From Raja brachyura (lineage: Eukaryota), in NCBI GenBank assembly GCA_963514005.1, contig OY740792.1:34658001-34722000 (forward strand): 64,000 nt of DNA, read 5' to 3'. Positions 3,470 through 55,200 of the stretch are shown piece by piece. The stretch's first letter is position 1. Each line of letters starts with the position of its first letter. A model generated the notes under the pieces. The model worked only from the letters and a program-made list of their open reading frames with translations. It was not told the DNA's origin and ran no database searches. Made by a program: the position numbers and the translations under genes.

Positions 3470-4145
3470 AACAATAAGTGCAGGAATTGGCCATTCGGCC
3501 CTTCGAGCCATTCAATGTGACCATGGCTGATCATCCCCAATCAGTACCCCTTTCCTGCCTTCTCCCCATATCCCCTGACTCCGCTATCTTTTAGAGTTCT
3601 AATGGCCCTGTCCCAAGAGCTCTCCCGAGTTTGCCCTGATTTGAACTCGGAGATTTACGGTAATGGCTGCTCGTCGGTACTCGGGGCTCTCGTGGACATT
3701 TTTCAACATGTTGAAAAATCTTCACGAGTCTTCCCGAGCTAACCTGCCGTTAGCGAGTCTTCCTGAGTACCGGCCGTTAGCGTTAATAGCCGCTAAGAGA
3801 CGTCCCCGAGCTCCGACGTACCCGCTATGTTCATTCTCCGTGCTTACCACGAGTTTGATTTTTGGTAAACTCGGGAGAGCTCTTGGAATGAACTTGTACC
3901 ACGGGACAGGGCCATTACTCTCTCTTGAAGCATCCATAGAACTGGCCTCAACTGCCTTCTGAGGCAGAGAATTCCACAGACTCACAACTCTCTGTGTGAA
4001 AAAGTGTTTGCTCATCTTAGTTCTAAATGGCTTACCCCTTATTCTTCAACTGTGGGCCCCCTGGTTCTGGACTCCCCCAACATCGGGAACATGTTTCCTG
4101 TCTCTGGCGTTTCCAAACTCTTAATAATTTTATATGTTTCAATGT
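3470..4145 (-). mobile_element. CR1/HER1 3' fragment split by a MITE
   Basis: FFTQRVVSLWNSLPQKAVEA motif; CR1 3' UTR (ggccattcggcccttcgagcc). Confidence 0.85.
3602..3915. mobile_element. Non-autonomous DNA transposon (MITE), copy 1
   Basis: Terminal inverted repeats atggccctgtccc/gggacagggccat flanked by TA; homologous inverted copy at 28674-29004. Confidence 0.85.
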
Positions 4146-4924
4146 TTTTGTGGGATATCCATTAACGGAGAGCTTTGTTCAAAATCAGCAAAGATACAAA
4201 TTTTCTTACTGAGTGTACAAGAGGTGCAGGACTGTTGGTGCACACTGGGTGGCAACATCTGCATGTACAATACCCGACAAGGTAATTTGGATTTGGAATG
4301 TTTTATGAGCTTGTTATATGTAGTTGTGTTTGCTTTGATTTCTTAATACCCCAGTATGCAATTGATTTTCAAAACTTGTGTTTTGAAAAATGCTCTATCT
4401 GTTTTCTTAAATATTAGATATGGGTGAATGTTACTGTAAACCCCAAGCAGTAAAATACCTAATAATTACATGGCTAATCGTGTTGCAATATGTGGAAGCC
4501 CTGTGGCCCAGCTTATGAGATCTGAAAGAATCGTTAGTTCTGTGTGAAGAGCAGAGAAGTTCTGGATTCCTGACCAACATTCCGCCTTCAGGCAGCATTA
4601 CTAAAACATTATCTGGTTATAATCTTGTACTCAGTCTTTACTGAGCATGTATTTATCCAGTTAGAAAATTGCACAAAACAAAGCTGCACATTCAGTTCTA
4701 ATTATAAAACAGTCACTGTGTGTACAGTTAAACTCTGGCTCCTGATTGACCATAACTCTGCTATTCTGGTATTTTGTGTCCTGTTGAGTTTATTGCCGTA
4801 CATTATTATATGACCAGAAACAGGCCTGGAATGCTTTATATTTCCCGTTTCCTTGAAACTCGGCGGGTTTGAGATAATTTATTATACTGCTGTGTAACAT
4901 AACATAAAAATGAAATAAGTAATT

Positions 4925-6226
4925 GTCATACAGCATGGAGACCGGCCCTTCAGCCCAACTTGCCCATGTCGACCAAGCAGCCCCATCTACAGTAGTCCCA
5001 CCTGTCTGCGTTTGGACTGTACCCCTCTAAACTTTCCTGTTCATGTGCCTGTTCAAATGTCTTTTAATTGTTGTTACAGGATCTGCCTCAACTACCTCAT
5101 CTGGCAGCTTATTCCATATACCCACTACCCTCTTTGTGGGAAAGGTTTCCCCTCAGATTCCTATTAAATCTTTCCACTCTCACTGGTCACCTACGTCCTC
5201 TGGTTCTTGATTCCACTACTCTGGGTAAAAGAATATGCATCTACTTTATTTCCCTCATGACCATATGCACCTCTATAAGATCAACCCTCACCCTCCTGCT
5301 CTCCAAGGAATAAAGCCCTAGCCTGCTCAACCTTTTCCTATAGCTCAGGCTCTCGTTCACACAACATCTTCATGAATATTCTCTGCACTCTTTCCAGTTT
5401 AACAACATTTTTCCTATAGCAATGTGACCAAAACAGAACACAATATTTCAAATGTGCTCCCCCCGCCCACCCCAAACGTCTTGTGCAACTGTAACGTAAC
5501 ATTCCAACTTCTATACTCAGTACCTTAACTGATGAAGGCCAATCTGCCGAATGCCTTCTTGACCACCGTATCTACCTGTGACACGACATTCAAGGAACCA
5601 TGTACATGATTTCCTAGATCCCTCTGCTCTATAATACTTCCCAGAGGCCCTCCATTTACTGTGAAGGTCCTGCCCCGGTTTGACTTCCCAAAATGCATCC
5701 ACTCACTATCTGCATAAGACTCCTTGGCCCACTTGCCCAAATAATTAAGATCCTGTTGTGAACTTTGTTGGTCATCTTCCCTATATACGATACCACCAAT
5801 AACAATTAGTGTTATCTGCAAACTTACTAATCGTGCCTTGTACATTCTCATTCAAATTGTTGATATAAACCACAAACAGCAAAGGGCCCAGCACTGATAT
5901 ATGAGGCGCACCACTAGTCACAGGCCTCCAGTGTGAAAAACAACCTTCCACCTTCATCCTCTGCTTCCTTCGAATAAGCCAATTTTCTATCCAGTCGGTT
6001 CGCTCTCCTTAGATGCCATGTGATCTAACCTTACAGAGCAGCCTACCATGCAGATCGTTGTCAAATACCTTCCTGAAATCCATACATACAATGTCTATAG
6101 CTCTACCCTCGTTAAGCTTTTTGGTTACAAAATATTCGGATCAGACTCGTGAGACACTATCTCCTATGCTGGGTATCCCTAATCAGCCCCTGTTTATCTC
6201 AATGCGTCCATTAGAATACTCTTCAG
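4925..6226 (-). mobile_element. CR1 LINE, 3' part (host of the L1 insertion)
   Basis: CR1 RT C-terminal peptides (HFGKSNRGRTFTVNG...VDTVVKKAFG, ORF 5525-5851); continues at 9270. Confidence 0.85.
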
Positions 6227-9200
6227 CACGACAACTTAGAAAATTAGAAGATGAAAAATTGATACATAGAATTAGATCTGCGGATGGCGATACCAAAAGA
6301 TATTAATGACAGATTTCTACAATATTATCAAAATCTTTATTCATCTAAATTAACAGGACAAACAGTTGGTATGGAAACATTCCTACAAGAGTGTCAAATT
6401 AACAGTCTAGATCAGGAAGGTAGACATTTGTTAAACGCTGAAATAACAGTAAAAGATATTGAAGAATCAATTAGTTCGTTAAAGAATGGAAAAGCAGCGG
6501 GCCCTGATGGCCTGAGTGCAGAATTTTATAAAAAAGTTCTAGACCTGATTTCCCCAAGATTATATACAGTATATAGATATGCATATGAACAAGGCAAATT
6601 ACCAGATTCTTTAAACGAATCCACAATTACACTCATTCCTAAGGTAGATAAGGATTTGGAAGATCCAGGATCATATAGAGCGATCGCACTTCTAAATACA
6701 GACCAAAAAATATTAACTAAAGTTTTATCTCAGAGATTAAGTTTAGTGATTTCTAAATTAATACATCATGATCAAACAGGTTTTATTCCAAAACGCTATT
6801 CATCCCATAATCTCAGACGCTTGTTTAATATTATATATTCAAAAAGAGTACGGGACAGGGAATTAGCAGTTGTATCGCTAGATGCAGAAAAGGCATTCGA
6901 TCAGGTGGAATGGTTATATTTATTTAATATAATGGAAAAGTTTCAATTGGGGGATAGATTCTGTAAATGGATAAGAATTTTATATTTGAATCCAACGGCA
7001 AGAATCTTAACTAATCAAATATTATCAGCTAAATTTAAGCTCTCTAGGGGATGTAGACAGGGATGTCCGTTATCGCCTTTACTATTTGCTTTGATGATAG
7101 AGCCTTTGGCGGAAAGAATTAGATCTGAACCTGAAATATACGGCTATAATACTGACACAACAACTAACAAAATATCTTTATATGCAGATGACGTTTTGAT
7201 TTATATTACAAAACCGGAAATTAGTATACCTAAGCTGTTTAATGTTATAACTAAATTTGGCACATTTTCAGGATTTAGGATTAATTGGAACAAAAGTGAT
7301 ATTATGCCTATAACAGGAATTAATTTAAATATATTACAACAATATCCATTAAAAATAGTTACAGACAAATTTAAATATTTAGGAATTAATGTAACTAAAT
7401 CTTATAATTCACTAATTAAATCTAATTACCCTCTATTATTAGATAAACTTAAAAAAAATATTCTGTATTGGAAAACACTTCCTATATCCATGATTGGTAG
7501 AATAAATGCTATAAAGATGGTGTTTTTACCACAATTATTATATTTGTTTCAGGCTATTCCTTTTTTTCTCCCAAAGACTTAAAAAAAAATAGATAATATT
7601 ATTTATAGTTTTATTTGGGATTATAAAAATCATAGAATAAGTAAAAAACATTTATGTAAATCTAAGATAAACGGAGGATTAGCACTTCCAAATTTTTTAT
7701 ATTATTTTTGGGCAGTCCAGATTAAGAATATGAATTTTTGGTGGGTAAATATGGATCATGAACCAATGTGGTTAAAGATGGAAAAGGAAGATTGTTTACC
7801 TTATAATGTAGGCTCGATTCTCTTTGCCCCAAAGGAAGTACAAAAAAAAATTTATAGGGACAACCCTATAATTTATAATAATAGACGTATTTGGAAACAA
7901 ATAGTTAAGACTTTACAGCTAGATAATCTCTCACTCAGACTACCAATAACGAATAACCCATTATTTAAACCCTCTATATTGGATGGAGGGTTTAGACATT
8001 GGGATGATTTAGGAATTAAAAGGATAGAGCACCTTTATAGAAAAGGAAAATTTCTTTTATTCCAAGAGTTACAAGATATCTACGGATTGTCTCCGCAACA
8101 CTTGTTTAAGTACTTAGAAATTAGAGATTATATAAAATCCAACACACAAGATTATAAAAATAAAGTACCAGGATTATTAGATGATTTGTTTAATTTGCAC
8201 CCAAATACAGAAAAATTAATAGCCTATATATAACATAATTTTGGATAAGGAGAATCCAACAACTGAAACATATCGTCAAGCATGGGAAAATGAAATTGGT
8301 TTATCCATAACAAAAGAAAATTGGGAAGAAAGTTTACAGCAAATACATCGGTGTTCGTTAAATGCCAGACATACATTGATACAATTCAAAGTATTATATA
8401 GATTACATTATTCAAAAACTAAATTAAATAGTTTCTTTCCCAATCTCTCTTCAATTTGTGATAAATGTAAGAATTTAGAAGCAAATTTAACACACAGTTT
8501 TGCTACATGTCCCAAATTGAATCACTACTGGACAGAAATTTTTAAGGTTATTTCTGAGGTTCTTAAAATTAGATTGGATCCAGACCCAAAGTTATTAATA
8601 CTTGGAATTTTGGATTCAAATTCGGTACTTACAGTAAATCAAAGAAATTTCTTTGATTACTGTTTGATAATAGGGAAAAAAATCATATTGAAATTTTGGA
8701 AGGGAACATTAACCCCCACAATTAAAATGTGGGCGGCAGAAATGTTGGAGACGTTACAATTAGAAAGAATCAGATTTGTCCTATTGGACAAATATAATAC
8801 CTTCGAACAAATATGGTCTCCATATATACAATATCTAGAGAAGTAGCTGTTCTTGACATCACAGCTTGACGGGTACCCTGCGGGACTTGATGAGAATAAC
8901 ATATTCTTATACTAGGATTAATAGGCATGTCTTCATTGATATTATTATTTGTAATAGTTTTAGATACAATATATTTTGTTGATTTTCATTTATATATATA
9001 TATATAATATCTTTTCACTTTCTGTTAACCTTTTTTCCTTTCTCTATTTTCTTTTTCTCTTTTATATAATCAAATTATTATTTAATCACTCTCTTATTGA
9101 TTTAAAACTACTCTATCCTTATCTTTATTTCCTAAAAAAATAGAAGATAATAACTTTCAACGGGTTATTTAAAAAAATATGGAATTAAGTTGATGTTTGT

Positions 9201-37679: not shown

Positions 37680-39812
37680 GTCATATGCCTTCCAAATCAC
37701 TTATCAGTTTGGCTAAATTGATTGAGTCTTTTGAAAAAGTAACAATGATGATGAAATGAGTGCATTGTTATAGTTTACATGGACTTCAGTGAGGCCTTTG
37801 AAAGGGTCCCACTTGAAAGGCTGATTTAAAAGATAGACATAGGATCCGGAGAAAGGTGGCCAATCCTTCAGTCTGAAGAAGGGTTCCGACCCAAAACATC
37901 ATCATTCTTTATCCCCAGAGATGCTGCCTGACCCACTGAGTTACTCCAGCACTTTGTGTCTATCTTCAATATAAAGTTGGCTTGGTAATAAGAGGGGGTG
38001 ATGGTGGAGGATTATTTTGTGATTGGAAGCTTGTGATCCACAGTGTGCCACATAGATTAGCGCTGAGACCCTTGCTGTTAGTCATATACATGAATGATTT
38101 AAATCTGGGCTAAGGAGGAATGATAAGTAAGTTTGCAGTTGACATGAAATTTGATAGCATTGTTGATAGTGAGGGAGGTACCCTTAAGGTACAGAATGAT
38201 ATTGGTCATCTGTAAATTAAGAAGAGCAATGGCAGATGGATTTAATCCTGATAGGTGTGAGGAGATTCATTTTCACATGTATCCTGACTGGCAGTGCCAG
38301 GGGGTGCATTGTGGAGTACTATAGACCACATTAGGGACTGTGGTACAAGTTCATAGATACCTAAAGATGGCAGCACACATTGATCAGGTGATGAAGAAGG
38401 CATATGGGACACTGGGCTTCATTAGTCAGGGCAGTCAACAGAAGAGCATGGTACAATTAATCAACACTGGTTTGGACACAGCATCCAGTTCTGTGTGCAG
38501 TTCCGGCCCCCACATAACAGGAAAGACGCGATTGCTCTGGCGAGAGTGCAGAGGCGATTCAGCAGGAAATTACCTGGGATAAAATGTCTCCATTTTGAGG
38601 AGAGACTGGAGGAGCTGGATGTGTTTTCCTTGGAGCAGAGGAGGTTGAGGGGGTGTGGTGACCTGATGGAGGTGTACAGGATTATGGGTGGGCTAGATAG
38701 GGTAAATGGTGAGAAACTTTCACCATAATTGAGACATCATACTAAGGGCCCTGGGCCAAACTTGTGGAGTAAGAAAGTTAAAGGTAAAAAAAAAATTCGG
38801 GTAGTAGGTAGTTGGAATCTGGAAAACACTGCCTGAGAAGCTAGTGAAGGGAAGTGCTCTCACATCATTTAAAAGGTAGCCAGATGAACACAAATTGCCA
38901 AGGCATAGAAGACTATGTACCAAGTGGGAGGGATGGCCAGTGTGTGGCTGGCATGGACATGGACATGGTGGGCAGCATGGCCTGTTTCTGTGTGGCATGA
39001 CTCTATGACTTCATCCTCACAGTCAACTCTGCTCATTAATTCATATTTGTCATGCAGGATGTACCTTTCATAAAACCTGGTGACCTGGATTGATTGCATT
39101 AAGCTTCTTGAAATGACAAGGAATTTGGGGACCCTGGCAGATATGTTTGTGTCTTCTTAACCGTGGCTGAGGTATCAGAAGACTGGAGGGTGGCTAATGT
39201 TGTGCCTTTATTTAGGGAGGTCCGCAAGGGCAAGTCAGGGAACCACAGGCCAGTAAGCCTAACATCAGTGGTGGGAAAACTACTGAGGGTGATTCTGAGA
39301 AACAGGATCTCGATGCATGTGGAGAGGAAAAGGCTGATAAGAGGTAGTGAACATAGATTTATGTGTGAGAAATTATGTTTCACAAATTTGATTGAATTTT
39401 GCAAACCAAGAGGATAGATGAATATAAGGTAGGAGACGTGGTTTACATGGACTTTATCAAGACTTGGTCAGGGTCCCGACTGGTCTAGAATGTGAGATCA
39501 CATTGGATTCAGGGTGAATCAGCCAATTGGAAAGAAAAATAACCTGGTGGAAGGAGGCATTGGGCAGCAGCAAAGTGTTGTTTTTCAGATTGGAGCCCTG
39601 TGACCAGTGGTGTGCCGTAGGGATCAGTGTTGGGTCCGCTGCTGTTAACAATTTGGATGAGAATGTAAGTGACATGATTAGTAATTTTGTGGATAGCACC
39701 AAAATTGCCAGTTTTCCTTGGTGACCTTAGAGGGTTACAATATCATGAGGGACCTAGATAAGGTGAATGGTTTAAGGTGAGGGGCGAGATTTAAAGGACA
39801 TCTGAAGGGCAA
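37680..39812 (+). mobile_element. Degenerate CR1 fragments (two copies), with a PLE repeat at about 37868-37970
   Basis: EDWRVANVVPLF, RPVSLTSVVGKL and LARVQRRF peptides; the host CR1 resumes at 44498. Confidence 0.75.
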
Positions 39813-40149
39813 TTTTACTTCGGAGTCACGTGAGTGACTACGTGAAGAACCCCGTACAGCCGTTCGTGCGTCATTGCGTCAGACGTTTTTTGTGCAGACA
39901 GCTGTGGAGCAGCGCAGCTCCTCCATGGTAAGTCTAAAAAAGTTGCAGGTAAGTGCTATTTTTCTTACCTGTTCTAGGTCTCTGCAGGAACCTCCGGGGT
40001 TTCTGCAGTGGATGTTCGCGATAGCCGACAAGGGAACCAGCCGAGGGCTTTGGGGGGGGAAACCCTGGTCCGACCGCGGAAGCGGAGAGCTGGGAAAGTC
40101 GGGTTCGCGATCGGAGTCACTGATAACGCGGTCAGTGACTCCACAGGTT

Positions 40150-40666
40150 GGGTTCCCGGGTAGGGGAAACCCGAGAATAGTGCGGTTTTAGACCGCAGTA
40201 GTCCCTAGGGGATGGGGCTTAACGGACCTGAACGGTCTGCCTGGGTTCCCGGTGGAGGGGAAACCCGAGGATAAGTGCGGTTTTAGACCGCAGTAGTCCC
40301 CAGGGGATGGGGCTTAGCGGACCTGAACGGTCAGCCTGGGTTCCCGGGGAGGGGAAACCCAAGCATATGCGGTTCTAGACCGCAGTAGTCCCCAGCACAT
40401 GGGGTTAAAACTAACCTAAACGGTTAAGCTGGGTTCCCGGTGCAGGGGAAACCCAGGTATATGTGTGGTTCCCAGACCACAGTAGTCCCTAGGTAATGGG
40501 GTTAATTCACATAAATCATTAGCCTGCGTGCCATGAGGGTACCGTGAGTATCTATTTATATATATATATTATATTTATATGGATTCCTGGTGAGGGGAAA
40601 TTCACCTATGGGGTTCTCAAGCTACAGTAATCCCCAGGATATGGGGACAACTGACAAAATAGTCAG
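40150..40666. repeat. Tandem array of about 93-95-bp multi-hairpin units (4 good plus 1 diverged)
   Basis: Units start at 40150, 40243, 40338, 40431 and about 40581. Confidence 0.9.
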
Positions 40667-40714
40667 TACAATTGGGAAAGTTGGGAGATTTCACCTCTAG
40701 GAATTAATTTAGAG

Positions 40715-41243
40715 AGCAGCACTTTTGGGTAGGGCTGCTTCATGGGAATGTCAAGTTATGGCAGTGCCAGCCTATGGGAAAGGCTGTGTCAGCAGTACCT
40801 TTGTTTAGGACTGCTAATGGGGATGCCAAGCTATGGTAGGCTCGCCTGATGGAGAGGCTGTGCCAGCAGTACCTTTGCTCAGGACTGCTCATGGGGATGC
40901 CAAGCTATGGCAGGCTAGCCTATTGGAGAGGCTGTGCCAGCAGCACCTTTGCTCAGGGCTGCTCATGGGGATACCAAACTATGGCAGGCTAGCCTATTGC
41001 AGAGGCGGTGCCAGCAGTACCTTTGCTCAGGACTGCTCTAAGGGAATGCCAAGTTATGGTAGGCTAGCCTATTGGAGAGGTTATGCCAGCAGCACCTTTG
41101 CTCAGGGCTGCTTGATGAGAATGCCAAATCTATGGCAAATACTGGGCTATGGGAAAGTCCGGGCCAGCAGCTACTTTGTTCAGGGCTGCTTCATGGGCAC
41201 TAGGGGTACCTTGTTAGGGCTGCTTTATGGGGATAGCAGTTTA
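40715..41243. repeat. Tandem array of about 74-bp units (about 7 copies)
   Basis: cagcag anchors at 40790, 40864, 40938, 41012, 41087 and 41165. Confidence 0.9.
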
Positions 41244-44200
41244 GTAGGGTATTCCCATTCACAGTGATCATGGGGGATGAGGAGGCATTGTTAGGATAAG
41301 GCAATATAACAGAATGATGACAAAAGTATTCAAAGAAAACTATACACAGTTTAAACGTGCTTGTGCTAAAATCCGCTGTCTAGTCTCAAACTATATTTGA
41401 GAAATTGGGCTCCTCTATCCAGTTAGATTAAGTCCTATCAAATAGATTTGTAGGATGTTGGGATTTGCTTTTAGGTATTCAATTGGCCATGATGCCGGCC
41501 TGGGCAACAGATTGCAGTCAATAAGACTTTGGTAACAGTTGTTGGTATAAAACAGTTCTAGTCGTTGGACTAATTGTTAAGTGCATAGATGCAATTCAGG
41601 TGTGTAAGTAGTGCAACAATTATTTTGTTAAATGGTTGATTAGTAAGTGCCATCTAGGTCATTGTTAACACCAGCTGAAATTAATAATGTCACGATGATG
41701 GACAAACAGTGTTCATTACTGCTCTAGTAGTTGTTAGGTAAACCTTTTATTCTATTGCAAATTGGTGCTAATGGCCTAAATGGGAAATGGTGTCAGCAGA
41801 GCTGTGTAGCAGGCCTGCTTTATGGCTCCCTCATGTAAGAGGTGAGCATGTGGGATTGGTATAGTTTAACGCCGAGTCTGAGGGTATAGCCATAGAGCAT
41901 GCCCAAGAGATCGGGGCATGTGCCAGAGGTCTATGCCTGACAAGAAAGTTACCATCCCAAACACAATATGCAGTGAACACCGCTCTCAGGGGGACATTAC
42001 ATTTGGCTGCCGAATCCTCTATTCAGGTAAGACTTTTCCATAGGTGTAACCTGGAGGGTGAAGCACAAGCTATTGGAACAAGCAAGGTTTCATAGTTCTG
42101 GCAGCAATGCATCCCATGTCTTTTTTGGCAGTAGCGGTTCACTGAAGTTGCTGGCAGCATGAAAGCTGGCCAGAGGTTCCACGCACTGGACTTGTGCTAC
42201 TCTACAATTAAGGGACCACTTGCAGTTTGGTAAGGTGTATACTTAGTTATACAGTACAAATGATTGAGACATTATCAGCTACTTTGAACGGTAAATGTAA
42301 AATGTACAATATTGGGTTTCAAGCAGGTTAGAATTGCACAGGTTCAGTATAAGGACCAAGATTGTCTTGTTAGACTGGCTCGGAAATCGGGCCACAGTTG
42401 CTATTTAAGGTAGTTACCAAGTAGCTGAAAGATCATCTCGAGTTTGGAGATGGAACAGATTTGCATGACTTGCCCAAAAAGTTCTGTTATTAGTATCAAC
42501 TATTTATAGACTCTACGGGCATTGTATGGGCTATAGAGTGATTGGACAAATAAGCATATTGTCATGCTCATGTTCAGGTTGGTGCATTGTGATGATGGCA
42601 TATGTTAGTCACGAGGGTGCAATCGGTTAAAGAATCACTGGAATGGTTACATAATTTTGTTGCCACAGGAGAATCATCAAGTGTGGGTAATGGCAACACA
42701 GAGTTGGTGTTGAATCGCACTGTATTATGAAATTCTGGTTCAATGGAACACCTAATATGAATATATGTGTATACATATGTATGTTGGTTTCATGTTTATT
42801 TCACTGGTTGCAAAATAGTTGGCATAGCAGTGGCAAAAGATACATTCTCGCCAAAAAGGAGCAGGTGGGTCTTTTATGGCTACCTCCATTTTGTCTCATC
42901 ACTCGAGGTTTCAAATAAAGTCATTAAGAGGCTTTAAGTTCTTATTGTGTGATTATGCAAATTGATTCCCGATTTGTTGCAAATAATTATATAACCTTAT
43001 TGGTTATTTTAAACTTGAATTTGCTTGTTCAGCCTGAGGCTTCGGAAATCAGATGTTTCATGATAAACTCAAATTTATGTTCTGCAGGTCTAACAAACTG
43101 TCCTAAGGTTTGGGTTGTTACATCTATCCTTCTATGTGTTCAAAGAGTTTGCATAGCACCAAACGGCTATATTTTCTTTTCCAGGAGATGAAAGAGTTTG
43201 TTATGCTAATGTTCCATGAAAAATGGTATTGATTGCTAATGTTTCGAGTTCATGCTAAATGATTGTCTGTTAATTATAGAGTAATACGGCCATTAATTGG
43301 CTCAATGAGCTTCCTCATTGAATTGGCTGTAACGAACAAGACTCGCTGTCGGGTCCACACCGGTTATCAAGGGGTAGGATAGTTTCAACATAGGTCCCAG
43401 GACCAGTATAATGCCATATGCGATGTTGATATCTGTGAACACTATTTCACCAGGAGGCAGCAACTATATCCTTAAATTTGGCTGGAGTTTATTAGGTAGT
43501 TATCCTTCTGGCACTGGTTTAGTGCAGCAGGTTGTCGCAAAATAATTGTGATGGTACAGGATGATAATGTCTGTAAATTATAATATATAATATGTTATAA
43601 ATACTTGAGCAGACCAGAAGGGGGTCAGGTCTCAAAATAGTCACAGGCATACCAGGGGACCTTTGATAAGGTAAGCACACATGTATACAACAATATGTCA
43701 AGGTCATCAGGAGCTTTGGAGTTCTGAACTAGCAATGTTGTTAGTCACAAAGAATTTGGGAGAACGTATTGTTCATGGCATTCCAGATGAGGAAAACGGA
43801 GTTGTGTTATGCACTAATGGATTCTGTTTCCAGATCTCATTCCACCAGGGCTGCTACAACATCAGCAGCAAGGGTATTTATGTTCCGCTGGGTCGCATTG
43901 TTGCGGCTGGAGTATGGTCCATCGAATGAATCTCCACACATCTGTAATGACCCATTGGTGAACCAGGAGTATTGTTAACTCTATTTATGTTCTGGTTATA
44001 TGTTCCATCTGGGTGAGAGATGGAAATATTATTGTTTCATTTAAACAGCATCGGCATGTTTTACATCTATGTTATGACTGTATGCATTATGAATGTTTTC
44101 CCTTCATTTGTCAATGAAGCAGCTGTGGTTGTGTATCCTCGTTTCACACGGCATGAAATCACAGAGCTTTGAAGTCTTCACGTAGTCACTCACGTGACTC

Positions 44201-44624
44201 CGAAGTAAAATAGTAAGATTAAACGAGAACTTGCCAGTTTGAAGTTTGATCTTTATTTTATGAGGAGTCGAGTTGAGGGACTACGTGCCCTCTGCTCCCA
44301 GCCCTCATAGATTTCATCTGGTAGTTCTAGTCTTTATCTTACACTATACTTCGGTTTGCTGTGATTTCACACCGTTGCTTTGAAGATTGACGCACGAACG
44401 GCTGTACGGGGTTCTTCACGTAGTCCCTCAACTCGACTCCTCATAAAATAAAGATCAAACTTCAAACTGGCAAGTTCTCGTTTAATCTTACTATTTTATC
44501 ACAGTGTAATGAGTATGGAATAAACTGCCAGAGGAAGTGGTGCAGGCAGGTACAATTCCATAATTTAGAACAAATTAGGACAGATTCATGGAATTGAAAA
44601 ATTTAAGCCGTGTGCAGCCAAAGT

Positions 44625-45765
44625 AATTAGAAATGGGAATAGTACCGGAGGATTGGCGTACTGCGGAGTAGCAAGATGGATTCAACAGCGGCTGAATGGG
44701 AGATGCCAGAGAGTAATGGTGGATGGCTGTTTGTCAGGTTGGAAGCCGGTGACAAGTGGGGTGCCTCAGGGATCTGTGTTGGGTCCACTATTGTTTGTCA
44801 TGTACATCAATGATTTAGATGATGGGGTGGAAAATTGGATAAGTAAGTATGCAGATGATACTAAGATAGGTGGTGCTGTGGATAATGAAGTAGATTTTCA
44901 AAGTCTACAGAGAGATTTGGGACATTTGGAAGAGTGGGCTGAAAGATGGCAGATGGAGTTTAATGCTGATAAGTGTGAGGTGCTACATCTTGGCAGGATA
45001 AATCAAAATAGGCCGTACATGGTAAATGGTAGGGAATTGAGGAATGCTGTGGAACAGAGGGATCTAGGAATAACTGTGCATAATTCCCTGAAGGTGGAAT
45101 TGCATGTAGATAGGGTGGTAAAGAAAGCTTTTGGTGTGCTGGCCTTTATAAATCAGAGCATTGAATATAGGAGTAGGGAAGTAATGTTAAAATTGTACAA
45201 GGCATTGGTGAGACCAATTCTGGAGTATAGTGTACAATTTTGGTTGCCTAATTATAGGAAGGATGTCAACAAAATAGAGAGAGTACAGAGGAGATTTACT
45301 AGAATGTTGCCTGGGTTCCAGCAACTAAGTTACAGAGAAAGGTTGAACAAGTTAGGTCTTTATTCTTTGGAGCGCAGAAGGTTAAGGGGGGACTTGATTG
45401 AGGTCTTTAAAATGATGAAAGGGATAGACAGAGTTGACGTGGATAAGCTTTTCCCATTAATGGTAGGGAAGATTCAAACAAGAGGGCATGACATGAGAAT
45501 TAAGGGACAGAAGTTCAGGGGTAACATGAGGGGGAACTTCTTTACTCAGAGAGTGGTGGCTGTGTGGAATGATCTTCCAGCAGAAGTGGTGGAGGCAGGA
45601 TCGATTTTAACATTTAAAAGTAAAGTGGATAGGTATATAGACGGGAAGGGAATAGAGGGGTATGGTCTGAGTGCAGGTAGATGGGACTAGGGGAAAATAA
45701 ATGGTCGGCATGGACTGGAAGGGCCGAGGAGGCCTGTTTCCGTGCTGTAATTGTTATATGGTTAT
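44625..45765 (+). mobile_element. Young 5'-truncated CR1 with an open RT C-terminal frame
   Basis: Uninterrupted 345-aa ORF 44653-45690 ([27 protein letters not shown]) followed by 3' UTR and tail. Confidence 0.93.
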
Positions 45766-49525: not shown

Positions 49526-50305
49526 GGTACCCGGACGTGGCGTTGAAGGAGTAGGCTCACCAATAGGCTGTGTCGCCTACAAGCCAACTCACCGAAAGGC
49601 TGCTCTGCCGAAAAGCCAAATAACGGACATGACGGGGGTGAATCACCCCGTGTGTAGGTCGGGGTCGGGGGGTGAATCACCCTGGTGTTGGGGTTGTGGT
49701 CCGATGGTGCTGCATTGTGATCAGTGACTCTCACTATGTCGGGCGGAGGGACCAGCCTGTCCCACACCTCTGCTCCACCCGACCCACAGCCTGTCACAGT
49801 GCGGCTGCACAGGGGAGACGAGGCGGAGGGCGGCCGTGGCTGTGGGAGAGTGGGGGCTGTCCCGAGGGATGCGCTCCTTCGGCCGCTTACAACTTAGTGC
49901 TCGGGTTCAGCGTGCCCAGTCACCTATGGCTTGTGTGGGGAAAATGGGAAAATGACCCCCACCCTCCCGTCTCCACCAGCCAGTGATGTGATGGACGCGG
50001 GGGTCTGGACCAATCGCTGACAAGTCCCGACTCCCCAGCAACGTCATGTCCGTTATTTGGCTTTTCAGCAGAGCGGTCTTTCGGTGAGTTGGCTTGTAGG
50101 CGCCGCAACCTTTCGGTGGAGTTACCATTACGGCAGAGCGGCCTTTCGGTGAGTTTGCTTTTAGGCGTCCCGCCCTTTTGGTTAGTTGGCGTTTCGCCTT
50201 TGTACACTTTTGGTTATTTCGCTTTTCGGCTTAGTGCCCGTTCGGTTAGTTGGCTTCCACTTCTTTGCTTCAGCTTCTCGTCCTTCGACGCCACGTCCAC
50301 ACACG
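49526..50305. mobile_element. Fold-back non-autonomous DNA transposon with 8-bp TSD
   Basis: TSD gtcttctg (49518-49525, 50306-50313); subterminal IR ggacgtggcgttgaagga/tccttcgacgccacgtcc; internal IR of about 77 bp. Confidence 0.82.
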
Positions 50306-52219: not shown

Positions 52220-55200
52220 TGATTAATCGCAAGCTGAATAACCTTGTTCTTTCCCCTATCCTGCACCTGAATGGGAAGGGCAACAATTTCCCGGCAGGCA
52301 GATTTGCTAGTGCGCCGTGGGTAGGTTTAAACTCGATTTGCAGAGGGACAGGATCCAATGTCGGCAGGTGAGAGGCTGGAAAATGATGACAACAGAAATT
52401 GGGGCTTTGGCCAGGAAAAAGGAGGCAAGTGACAGATATGAGCAGCTGGGATCAAATGTATCCCTGGAGGAGTTTTGGGAACTGAGGAGCATACTTAAAT
52501 AGGTAACCAGGAAGGCAAAAAAGGGCAGGAGATGGCCCTGGCAGAAACGAAGAAAAATCCTTAGTTTATTATAAGTACATTGAGGAAAGAGGGTACTAAA
52601 GAGAAAATAGACCCCTCTGAAACCAAAGCAGCAATCTTTGCTGAGACGATGGGCATGCTTCTCAATGAGTATTTCTCCTCTGCTTTTATCATGGAGAAAG
52701 ACATGAAAACTAATGGAGGAGTCTTGAGGACGATGGTCGAGGAGATGCTGAACATCCTAAGATGTATGAAAGTAGATAAATCTCTTGGGCCTGTTCAGAT
52801 ATATCCGTGGTCTCTGCGGTCAGCTGAAGAAGAATTGCAGACGATATATAAATTATCATTAGACACAGTGAGGTACCGGAAGACTGGAGGGTGATTCATG
52901 TTGTACCTCTATTTAAGAAGGGCTGCAAGGAAAAACCTGGGAACAACTGACCCGTGAGCCTAACATCTGTGGTAGACAAGTATTGGAGAGTTTTCTGAGG
53001 AATAAAGTATGGATTTGGATAGACAGGCTGATTAGGGAGAGTCAGCATGGTTTTGTAAGTGGGAGATCATATCTCAAACCTACTTGAGTTTTTTGAAGAA
53101 GTAACCAACAGGGTTTATGAGTGCTAAGCCACATATGATGTCTACATGGTCTTCATCAAGGCATTTGATAATGTTTCACTTGGTTAGATCACACTGGATC
53201 CAGGGAGAGCTCGCTGTCTCAATAGAAAATTAGCTTCACTGAAGCAGTGACGGTGAAGGGTTGTTTTTTTTGGACTGGAGACCTGTGACTAGTGGAATGC
53301 CTCGGGGATCATTGCTGTTTGGGGTTTATATTAACAATTTGGATGAGAATGTATTCATGATTACTAAGTTTGTAGATGACACTAAAGTGGAAGGTACTGT
53401 AGGTTGCAATGTGGTTTACAAAATGACACCAAGACCTTGATCATTTCGACGTGGGCTGAGCAATAGTTCATGGAGTTCAGTGCAGATAAGTGCAAGGTGT
53501 TGCATTTTGGGAAGCCAAGTCAAGGACTTCCACAGTGAATGGCAGCGCCCTGGGGAATGTGATAGAACAGAAGGATCAAGGAGCACAGGTGCATAATTAC
53601 TTGAAAATGGTGTCACATGTAGATGGGGTAGTCAAGAAGGCTTTTGGCACATTGTAGGTATGTTACAAAACTTACCTTTAGCGGTGCTGCAGTTCTGCCG
53701 CTGGCCGCGTGCGTGACTTTGGCGCCTTTAAGGGGGGGCGGGGTTGAAATGCGGTTTTCCCCTTGCAATCCGGAGCTTTATTTTCTCGGAGTGTGATCTA
53801 TTTCTGGAGATGCGTTCCGACTGCCGGTAAGTCCGTTTTTTAAAATAAATCGTCCGACTATTTAATTGCTGCAGTAAAATAAAAATTAGCTCCCAATGCC
53901 GTGAACGCCGCGAACGGGGACCGATTTTACGTAGGGGACAGGTAAGTGAAAGCTGTTTATTTTTTCATATAAACTTGTTTTTTTAGGGGACTTTAATCAA
54001 TATTTCATGTTGCGAAACGGTGATTTAGCCCCCATATGAACTGGCAGAATTTTTCCAGCTGATATGGGGTTTAAATTCACCGCTACCGCAACGTTCCAAT
54101 GCAGCGCGTTCCATAAAATCCCACTCACAAGCTGTTTAAAATGCCCATTAATTTACAGGCATTAAACACTGAATTCCTTCAATTTGGCCTATAAATTAAT
54201 GACAATTAGATTTAAAAATCATGTTTTATTGTGAATTATTGTGTGACTGGTAATTGGACACTTAGGCTTTAAATTAAAAAAAAATTTTTTTAATAGAAAT
54301 TGATAAATGTTTAGATCTAGTAATTGAATTTTGTAATTGGCTACAATTGGGTAACTAACTAATTATATGCTTTCATTTCAGGTCATCCAAGTAAGATTGT
54401 TTCAGATTTGTTTCAGAATACTTCAATCTATAATAACTGAAAATTTCTTTCAGTTCTCTTAAATTTTAAGGAAGTTATGGGCTTTTGACTGTCCTCGATC
54501 ACAACTTTTGTGACAAGTCAATAGAAAAGCAATAGGAAGCAAGTTGCTAATTTCCGAGTATGAAAATGGCCCTAACTTTTTTAATACTGAAGATATGAAA
54601 GTGAATTAGGTGTCAAATTAAACTTATTTTTATGCTTTATCTGATGGGATAAATTGCAGACTTGATTTTTTAAATCTCAAAATTTTGTTACATTGCTATA
54701 CATTGGCCTTCACCAGTATTGAATATAGAAGGTGGGATGCTATGTTACAGATGTAGAAGACATTGATGAGGCTGCATATAGAGTATTTTATTTACTTTTT
54801 AGTTCACTGGCTATAGGAAGAATGTGGCTATGCTGGAAAGAGTACAGAGAAGACTTACAAGCAATGTTGTTAGGTCTTGAGGGATTGAGCTATAGGGAGA
54901 GGTTGAACAGGTCAGGACCATATTCCTTGAGGCGCAGGAGGATGAGGGATGATCTTATAAAAGTGTATACATCGAATGCACAGTCTTTTACCCAGAGTAA
55001 GGGAATCAAGAATCAAGGACATGGGTTTAAGGTGAGAGGGAAAAATGTCACAGGAATCCGAGGAGCAACATTTTCACACAGCGGTGGGTATAAGGAACGA
55101 GCTGCCAGAGGAGGTAGTTGATGCAGGTAGTATAATAATATTTAAAAGATACTTGGACAGGTACATAGACAGGAAAGATTTGGAGGGATATGGGCCTAAC

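Follow-up and report, generated by a model that had tools for sequence, protein, structure and literature searches.

The stretch analysed here, hereafter the window, comprises 64,000 nucleotides of Raja brachyura DNA (contig OY740792.1, positions 34,658,001 to 34,722,000). At 39813 to 44497 it contains a 4,685-bp element that starts and ends with TTTT and is likely a non-autonomous DIRS1-like retrotransposon, with steps in contig depth at both ends. Its strand (+) is taken from the 3′ position of its internal complementary region (ICR), and all features described below are given on that strand. The flanks belong to an old and degenerate CR1-like host copy, of which 39560 to 39812, at single-copy depth, lies to the left of the element, while 44498 to 44625 continues the same copy to the right, as seen by flank alignment.

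The left terminus (39813 to 39873) consists of a segment that pairs with the left ICR (39813 to 39848) and the conserved part of the inverted terminal repeat (ITR; 39836 to 39873). The right terminus (44388 to 44497) consists of the conserved ITR (44388 to 44425), a divergent ITR part (approximately 44426 to 44448) and a right extension (approximately 44449 to 44497, 49 bp). Between the termini lies the ICR (44175 to 44287), made up of a left part (44175 to 44210) and a right part (44207 to 44287) that overlap on AAAA at 44207 to 44210, the predicted circle junction. The first-pass annotation reported three perfect complementary pairings of 36, 81 and 38 bp, and all three proved exact on recomputation: the left ICR is the reverse complement of 39813 to 39848 (36/36 bp), the right ICR pairs with 44417 to 44497 (81/81 bp), and 39836 to 39873 pairs with 44388 to 44425 over 38 bp. 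Combined, these pairings cover 284 distinct bases with 0 mismatches. When maximally extended, the left-end match spans 39812 to 39848 against 44175 to 44211 (37 bp) and the right-end match spans 44206 to 44287 against 44417 to 44498 (82 bp), the latter being the longest exact inverted match of the 64-kb window. The aligned ITRs agree at 88.9% over 63 columns, with 38 bp conserved exactly and about 23 bp divergent, and the right extension, measured by aligning both ends, is about 49 bases long. A stretch common to ITRs and ICRs (at least 10 bases) is also present, with 39836 to 39848 inside both matches and 44417 to 44425 likewise, as is the direct repeat D17 (44175 to 44192 against 44413 to 44430, 94%). 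Judged from sequence, every structural feature that defines DIRS1-like ends in PMC3266345 is found here. A 9-bp direct repeat stands directly before the left ICR (44166 to 44174), with a second copy at 44377 to 44385, two bases before the right ITR. A 17-bp inverted repeat (88%; 44148 to 44164 and 44359 to 44375) flanks the ICR on both sides, with a copy of the 9-bp repeat following shortly after each arm, and could fold as an alternative to the duplex of ICR and right end. Observed/expected CpG is 1.67 at the left terminus, 1.40 in the ICR and 1.53 at the right terminus, as opposed to 0.36 in the interior, and the paired segments keep 20 of 20 CpGs.

Between these ends the element is non-coding. 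The three + frames of the interior (41198 to 44174) hold 65, 51 and 51 stops, any coding path through it needs at least 32 breaks, and with 51-65 stops per frame no open gag, reverse transcriptase (RT)/RNase H/methyltransferase or recombinase frame was found in the element. Pfam searches with six full frames and 15 sub-frames, in which X replaced each stop, found no domain of RT, RNase H, methylase or recombinase; matches to Elicitin (E 0.019 and 0.0024), DUF7444 (0.29) and zf-4CXXC_R1 (7.9) were all below the curated cut-offs and were discarded as chance. A phmmer search with one 498-residue frame (42680 to 44173) against 1.84 billion representatives returned a single match, P0001, a further copy of this fossil stretch that lies on a different contig (97% over 62 residues, covering 82% of the 76-residue query). 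Searches for longer relatives with a protein word index, by their design weak evidence, scored 0 of 19 and 0 of 37 candidates, and the ESM Atlas search gave no usable match. Six motif classes from PMC3266345 Additional File 3 were then scored against 100 doublet shuffles. Those for RT, RNase H and methyltransferase scored no better than chance (84, 98, 35, 35 and 16 of the 100 shuffles were equally good), while SHSTR at 43835 was equalled by 3 of 100, uncorrected for six tests. This motif (43835 to 43849), whose HSTR starts 337 bases before the ICR and whose stretch recurs in P0001, is a probable tyrosine-recombinase remnant, although the assignment is weakly supported; HSTR occurs three more times within the window. 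By eye and against a general consensus only, putative RT-like and RNase-H-like fragments stand in the expected order at approximately 42840 to 43680. Of the coding remnants originally proposed, the RT, RNase H and methyltransferase parts thus found no backing in domain matches or motif scores, and the recombinase part holds weakly.

The interior is highly repeated. Among 24 sequencing runs listed, 17 runs from eight organisms contain 0.47-0.63 of the sampled words and one further run contains 0.29. Four of the runs (X1, X4, X17 and X18) were aligned to the window, all as contigs and at 88% likeness, and the evidence on copies is drawn from these four; the other 20, and runs with small shares such as X19-X24, count only through the listing. 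In X1, the flank contigs have depths of 8.0 and 8.5 and show no differences from the window, and one of them crosses the left junction; the 19 interior bins have summed depths of 13,965-41,564 (median 26,786), about 3,300 times the flank contigs, where summed contig depth is, as the alignment method states, no copy number. In X4 the interior reaches a median summed depth of 168,835 against 59-99 for the flanks, a ratio of about 2,300. All 19 interior bins are high in both runs, both tandem arrays described below are family-wide by depth, and we infer hundreds to thousands of copies.

In X17 and X18, from two further organisms, 12 interior pieces differ from the window at 75 of 3,560 bases (2.1%) with 0-5 gaps each; bins without cover in these two runs were not taken as absence. 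Against 12-15 stops per frame, the piece at 41381 to 41886 shows 6 differences and a single gap. Although differences outnumber stops in some of the shorter pieces, which are not decisive alone, a divergence of 2.1% is too small to open the frames, and therefore the family as a whole is non-coding. In X1, six pieces diverge by about 10% (104/1,046), near the 88% likeness cut-off. Since pieces about 10% and about 2% diverged stand side by side, the family spans at least that range, as befits the long-lived lineage proposed at first pass. Together with P0001, these results bear out a non-autonomous multi-copy family. Near-identical copies with the same lesions had been named as the check to make, and the contigs found, 2.1% off and with closed frames, exclude a unique copy with private lesions.

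The age of this insertion can be bounded in two ways. Across three X4 flank contigs (depth 59-99), 26 of 862 bases (3.0%) are unlike the window. One of the three, 1,007 letters long and placed by its presumed orientation, follows the window up to 39811; its 782 further letters are not displayed as matching the element. The orthologous site in the relative behind X4 therefore appears to lack the element, which suggests an insertion later than the split from that relative. The second bound comes from the ends, where 0 mismatches among 284 paired bases limit post-insertion change to about 1%: the probability of seeing none is 0.24 at 0.5% decay, 0.058 at 1% and 0.003 at 2%. Inside the element, 7 of 39 listed variant sites are CpG losses, three of them (39891, 39900 and 40030) within 160 bases of the left ITR, and at that rate the 20 of 20 intact CpGs of the paired segments have a probability of about 0.046. 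Although the statistics are borderline, the changes are most simply read as inherited from an intermediate source copy, with the ends renewed in the last cycle. Mobilisation may have been recent, in a relative and undated sense; the interior is about 2% off the family majority despite perfect ends.

Other elements share these ends. Relative to the interior median, the ICR bin is 45 times as deep in X1, 28 times in X4 and 26 times in X17, an excess that comes partly from ends fitting more than one place. Loose contig ends at 39852, 44155, 44268, 44393 and 44436 represent sequences with the same outer ends that then diverge. From the terminal depth excess and these diverging loose ends it follows that many more elements carry the ends than carry the interior. 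At the left end the sister families match over about 40 bases and at the right end over about 62; inside they differ. By eye, the loose end of X18 at 44393 has the same changed bases as the X1 ICR variant at 44268/44436, which suggests that changes in the ICR and in the right end go hand in hand. The sister families are candidate helpers, and with such families present mobilisation in trans, as first proposed, is probable. In X18, a run guessed but not established to be RNA, the ICR bin (44064 to 44274) is 285 times the interior, compared with 26-45 times in the other three runs; if the guess holds, the sister families may be better expressed. The terminal patterns had 0 matches in viral contigs, and the related-locus search in viral contigs confirmed 0 of 39 stretches. 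At four metagenome loci, only about 20 bases of the patterns matched, with no inverted repeats, and these were rejected as chance.

The left and right insertion junctions bear the same six bases, ATTTTA, which recur at the predicted circle junction. By our own estimate, two additional matching bases beyond TTTT have a chance of roughly 8%, so that this is only a hint of a 6-bp target core. The joined flanks align over the junction to other repeat copies in the window (55024 to 55181, 69%, E 1e-9), and therefore the element interrupts an older repeat, recognised by its repeat features as a probable old CR1. The proposed insertion at TTTT without a true target-site duplication agrees with TTTT at both ends and with flanks that align over the site; the CR1 identity stands by recognition only. 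A much younger CR1-like copy (44626 to 45760), with a 373-codon open frame at 44569 to 45690, begins about 130 bases to the right of the element, and loose contig ends at 44626 in three runs suggest that it is 5′-truncated there. Elsewhere in the window, the inverted repeats of an element of about 770 bp at 49533 to 50298 are nested (77 bp at 90%) and composed of a unit of about 32 bp; this element resembles a DNA element of the foldback or miniature inverted-repeat type. At 6263 to 8846, three consecutive long frames (439, 216 and 207 codons) resemble, by their motifs, the RT region of an L1/Tx1-type long interspersed nuclear element.

Two tandem arrays lie in the 5′ part of the element. At 39925 to 40008 (z -3.4) there are two GTAAGT sites (39928 and 39949) that resemble the splice-donor consensus, and predicted hairpins at 39945 to 39972, which holds the second site, and 39982 to 40008. 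A diverged lead unit with a long predicted hairpin at its end (40055 to 40147, z -3.25) precedes an array of a 95-bp (approximate) unit in 3.8 copies, with up to four predicted hairpins per unit (40149 to 40505). A fifth, more diverged unit with several compensatory changes was found by alignment and folding at 40579 to 40668. The 95-bp array folds with z -5.94, better than 100 of 100 shuffles, and single units give z -3.8, -1.9, -3.1, -1.1 and -3.2. The four-hairpin model was derived from the same five related units used to score it, and in it 91.7% of 144 cells pair, with 5 of 29 pairs changing on both sides and 8 on one side. The observed values were reached by 0 of 500 shuffles for paired cells, 34 of 500 for double changes and 9 of 500 for the covariation score, and slid controls pair at 28-52%. 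With five related units, this covariation is suggestive of a four-hairpin RNA but is not proof. Rfam matched no ribozyme family or known RNA to the 95-bp array; three microRNA-precursor matches fell far below the gathering score and reflect only the long hairpin. The second array (40715 to 41197; a 74-bp unit in 6.4 copies, CpG observed/expected 0.09) gave no folding signal, with z about 0 in each of three units folded. Its period is not a multiple of 3, which suggests that it grew outside a reading frame. The first-pass annotation saw new structured cargo here; novelty of the repeats relative to the parent element is conjectural. We speculate that the hairpin array probably serves as an RNA-level cis signal, for example for packaging, which is the weakest step of our interpretation.

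We hypothesize that the element belongs to a non-autonomous DIRS1-like family that lost its coding capacity long ago and has gone on multiplying as a 4.7-kb unit moved in trans, and we consider this likely. Following the DIRS-1 model, the left ITR would drive a transcript that lacks the extreme ends, and the RT of an intact sister family would copy it. The right ITR would restore the left ITR, and the ICR would template both extremities. Applied here, the model has the ends re-templated in each cycle and would therefore keep the pairings perfect while the interior drifts. A borrowed tyrosine recombinase would then link the junction, through TTTT or perhaps the 6-bp ATTTTA, with a genomic site of the same sequence, which in this case lies in the old CR1. 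The window copy would come from a sub-lineage already about 2% off the family majority and have changed by at most about 1% since insertion. For DIRS-1 itself, PMC7192593 reports that the ICR is required to complete transposition and that RT acts in trans, and it names the priming of reverse transcription and recombinase recognition as open points. The first-pass annotation treated circular DNA as an established intermediate; according to the same paper, DIRS-1 cDNA is mostly linear and single-stranded, and both the circle and the trinucleotide target remain a model. A second correction concerns the polymerase chain reaction proposed for the circle junction. All genomic copies already contain the junction sequence, as the reverse complement of their ICR, so that a probe for the junction alone cannot detect circles.

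Several observations weigh against this interpretation. Summed contig depth is not a copy number, X1 may share the window's own source, and one insertion site has been read letter by letter, with no second. The letters of the X4 contig past 39811 are not displayed and its alignment stops one base before the shared ATTTTA; moreover, no flank-to-flank joint is among the 15 of 280 joints shown. At about 19 of the 40 variant sites shown (of 328), nearly all X1 family contigs differ from the window copy, perhaps through decay after insertion. Among the sister families, known from 30-base loose ends and the depth excess with their interiors not displayed, there was no intact partner to be seen, and the descent of the interior from DIRS genes rests on the single weak motif SHSTR. 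In an alternative, a DIRS end cassette captured unrelated DNA and was mobilised as hypothesized above; the interior would then not come from DIRS genes and SHSTR would be chance. Neither Pfam and phmmer nor the word-index and Atlas searches linked the interior to RT, RNase H, methylase or recombinase, which fits this alternative, as do the five of six motif classes at chance and the three further HSTR occurrences. It is nevertheless unlikely in our view, given the order of the putative RT-like and RNase-H-like fragments at approximately 42840 to 43680, judged by eye against a general consensus only. SHSTR is also on the expected strand, its 337-base gap to the ICR falls within published spacing (for example 169-515 in nine rows, computed by hand from PMC3266345 Additional File 3), and the length of 4,685 bp falls within the 3,793-6,283 of PMC3266345 Table 3.

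Copy and family could instead be old and inactive, the perfect ends owing to slow mutation and luck and the 2% or so having arisen after insertion. The near-fixed differences from the X1 family contigs and the seven CpG losses would be expected of such a copy, intact ends would not be exceptional at 0.5% or even 1% decay (0.24 and 0.058), and the X1 contig that crosses the left junction without differences reveals no polymorphism in that organism. We find this distinctly improbable, however, since 2% decay would leave the ends intact with a probability of 0.003, CpGs at 39891, 39900 and 40030 were lost while all 20 stand in the paired segments (about 0.046), and a relative only 3% diverged seems to lack the insertion at this site. 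The high depth could also come from a single dead DIRS copy amplified in tandem or segmentally rather than by retrotransposition, and with no other insertion site read directly and 265 of 280 joints not displayed this reading keeps some ground. The precise ends, the depth steps at the termini, the single-copy flanks, the apparently empty site and pieces ranging from about 2% to 10% diverged make it very hard to sustain. Gene conversion homogenising the ends of a single decayed copy, for which we found no supporting point, is practically negligible, since X1 and X4 show a highly repeated interior and X17 and X18 a near-identical one.

Provided that the trans-mobilised family is the right interpretation, a gene-less multi-copy family shows what is needed in cis, since only that has been kept: the ends, the ICR, the 9-bp repeat and, perhaps, the array of hairpins. 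The target core could be defined directly from many insertion sites of a single family, and presence or absence at single sites could give lineage markers. The known DIRS mechanism is left unchanged by the finding. A more ambitious version is speculative and, to us, doubtful as a whole: a LARD-like DIRS1 parasite that has lasted at full length in a vertebrate lineage while diverging by at least 10%, with a four-hairpin motif amplified under selection as a helper recognition or packaging signal, long-extension ends of the mollusc, cnidarian and crustacean type rather than the fish and frog type, and a 6-bp recombinase core in place of a trinucleotide. The family escapes protein-based annotation, as it did in every protein search here. 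Gene-less entries with ITR/ICR ends may exist in Repbase or Dfam. Our literature search, which had Repbase, Dfam, subscription journals and the supplementary tables of PMC9210276 outside its scope, found no description of a high-copy gene-less DIRS family of the ITR/ICR type in a vertebrate, and none is described in the accessible text of PMC8498967, PMC9004415, PMC4350176, PMC2685390, PMC8969392 or bioRxiv 10.1101/2022.05.23.493040. Degenerate Xenopus DIRS families are noted in PMC9210276.

Among known systems, the ends most resemble those of DIRS1-like elements with a long right extension (LgDIRS1, LgDIRS3, AcaDIRS1, AcaDIRS2, NveDIRS6b, DpuDIRS3 and BfDIRS1), whose rows in PMC3266345 Table 3 come from molluscs, a cnidarian, a crustacean and amphioxus. 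Their published ICR parts are 38-60 and 82-89 (36 and 81 here) and their right extension 45-50 (about 49 here), the conserved ITR of four mollusc elements is 31-36 (38 here), and they have NTT ends and comparable length (TTTT ends and 4.7 kb here). Unlike them, the window element has no open reading frames, two 5′ tandem arrays, a vertebrate host, a 4-base ICR overlap and a 6-base target identity. With the fish, frog and lizard elements (GaDIRS, TnDIRS1a, XtDIRS and AcDIRS; PMC3266345 and PMC9210276) it has in common the ITR and ICR architecture and a vertebrate host, and its TTT ends are as in Xenopus; in contrast, their rows in PMC3266345 give an extension of 26-34, a right ICR of 56-65 and a conserved ITR of 102-148, where the window element has 49, 81 and 38 and no genes. 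Like LARD elements, large non-autonomous derivatives of LTR retrotransposons (the term itself is used in PMC8498967), it combines a multi-kb non-coding interior between intact cis signals with high copy and structured RNA, whereas LARDs have direct long terminal repeats, integrase and target duplication in place of inverted ends, an ICR and, presumably, a tyrosine recombinase. Non-autonomy within the DIRS order is already in print, in PMC9940879, for TOC1 of Chlamydomonas, which like the window element is a protein-less member of the order; TOC elements, however, stand on the PAT side with different repeats (PMC3266345), while the window element has ITR/ICR ends.

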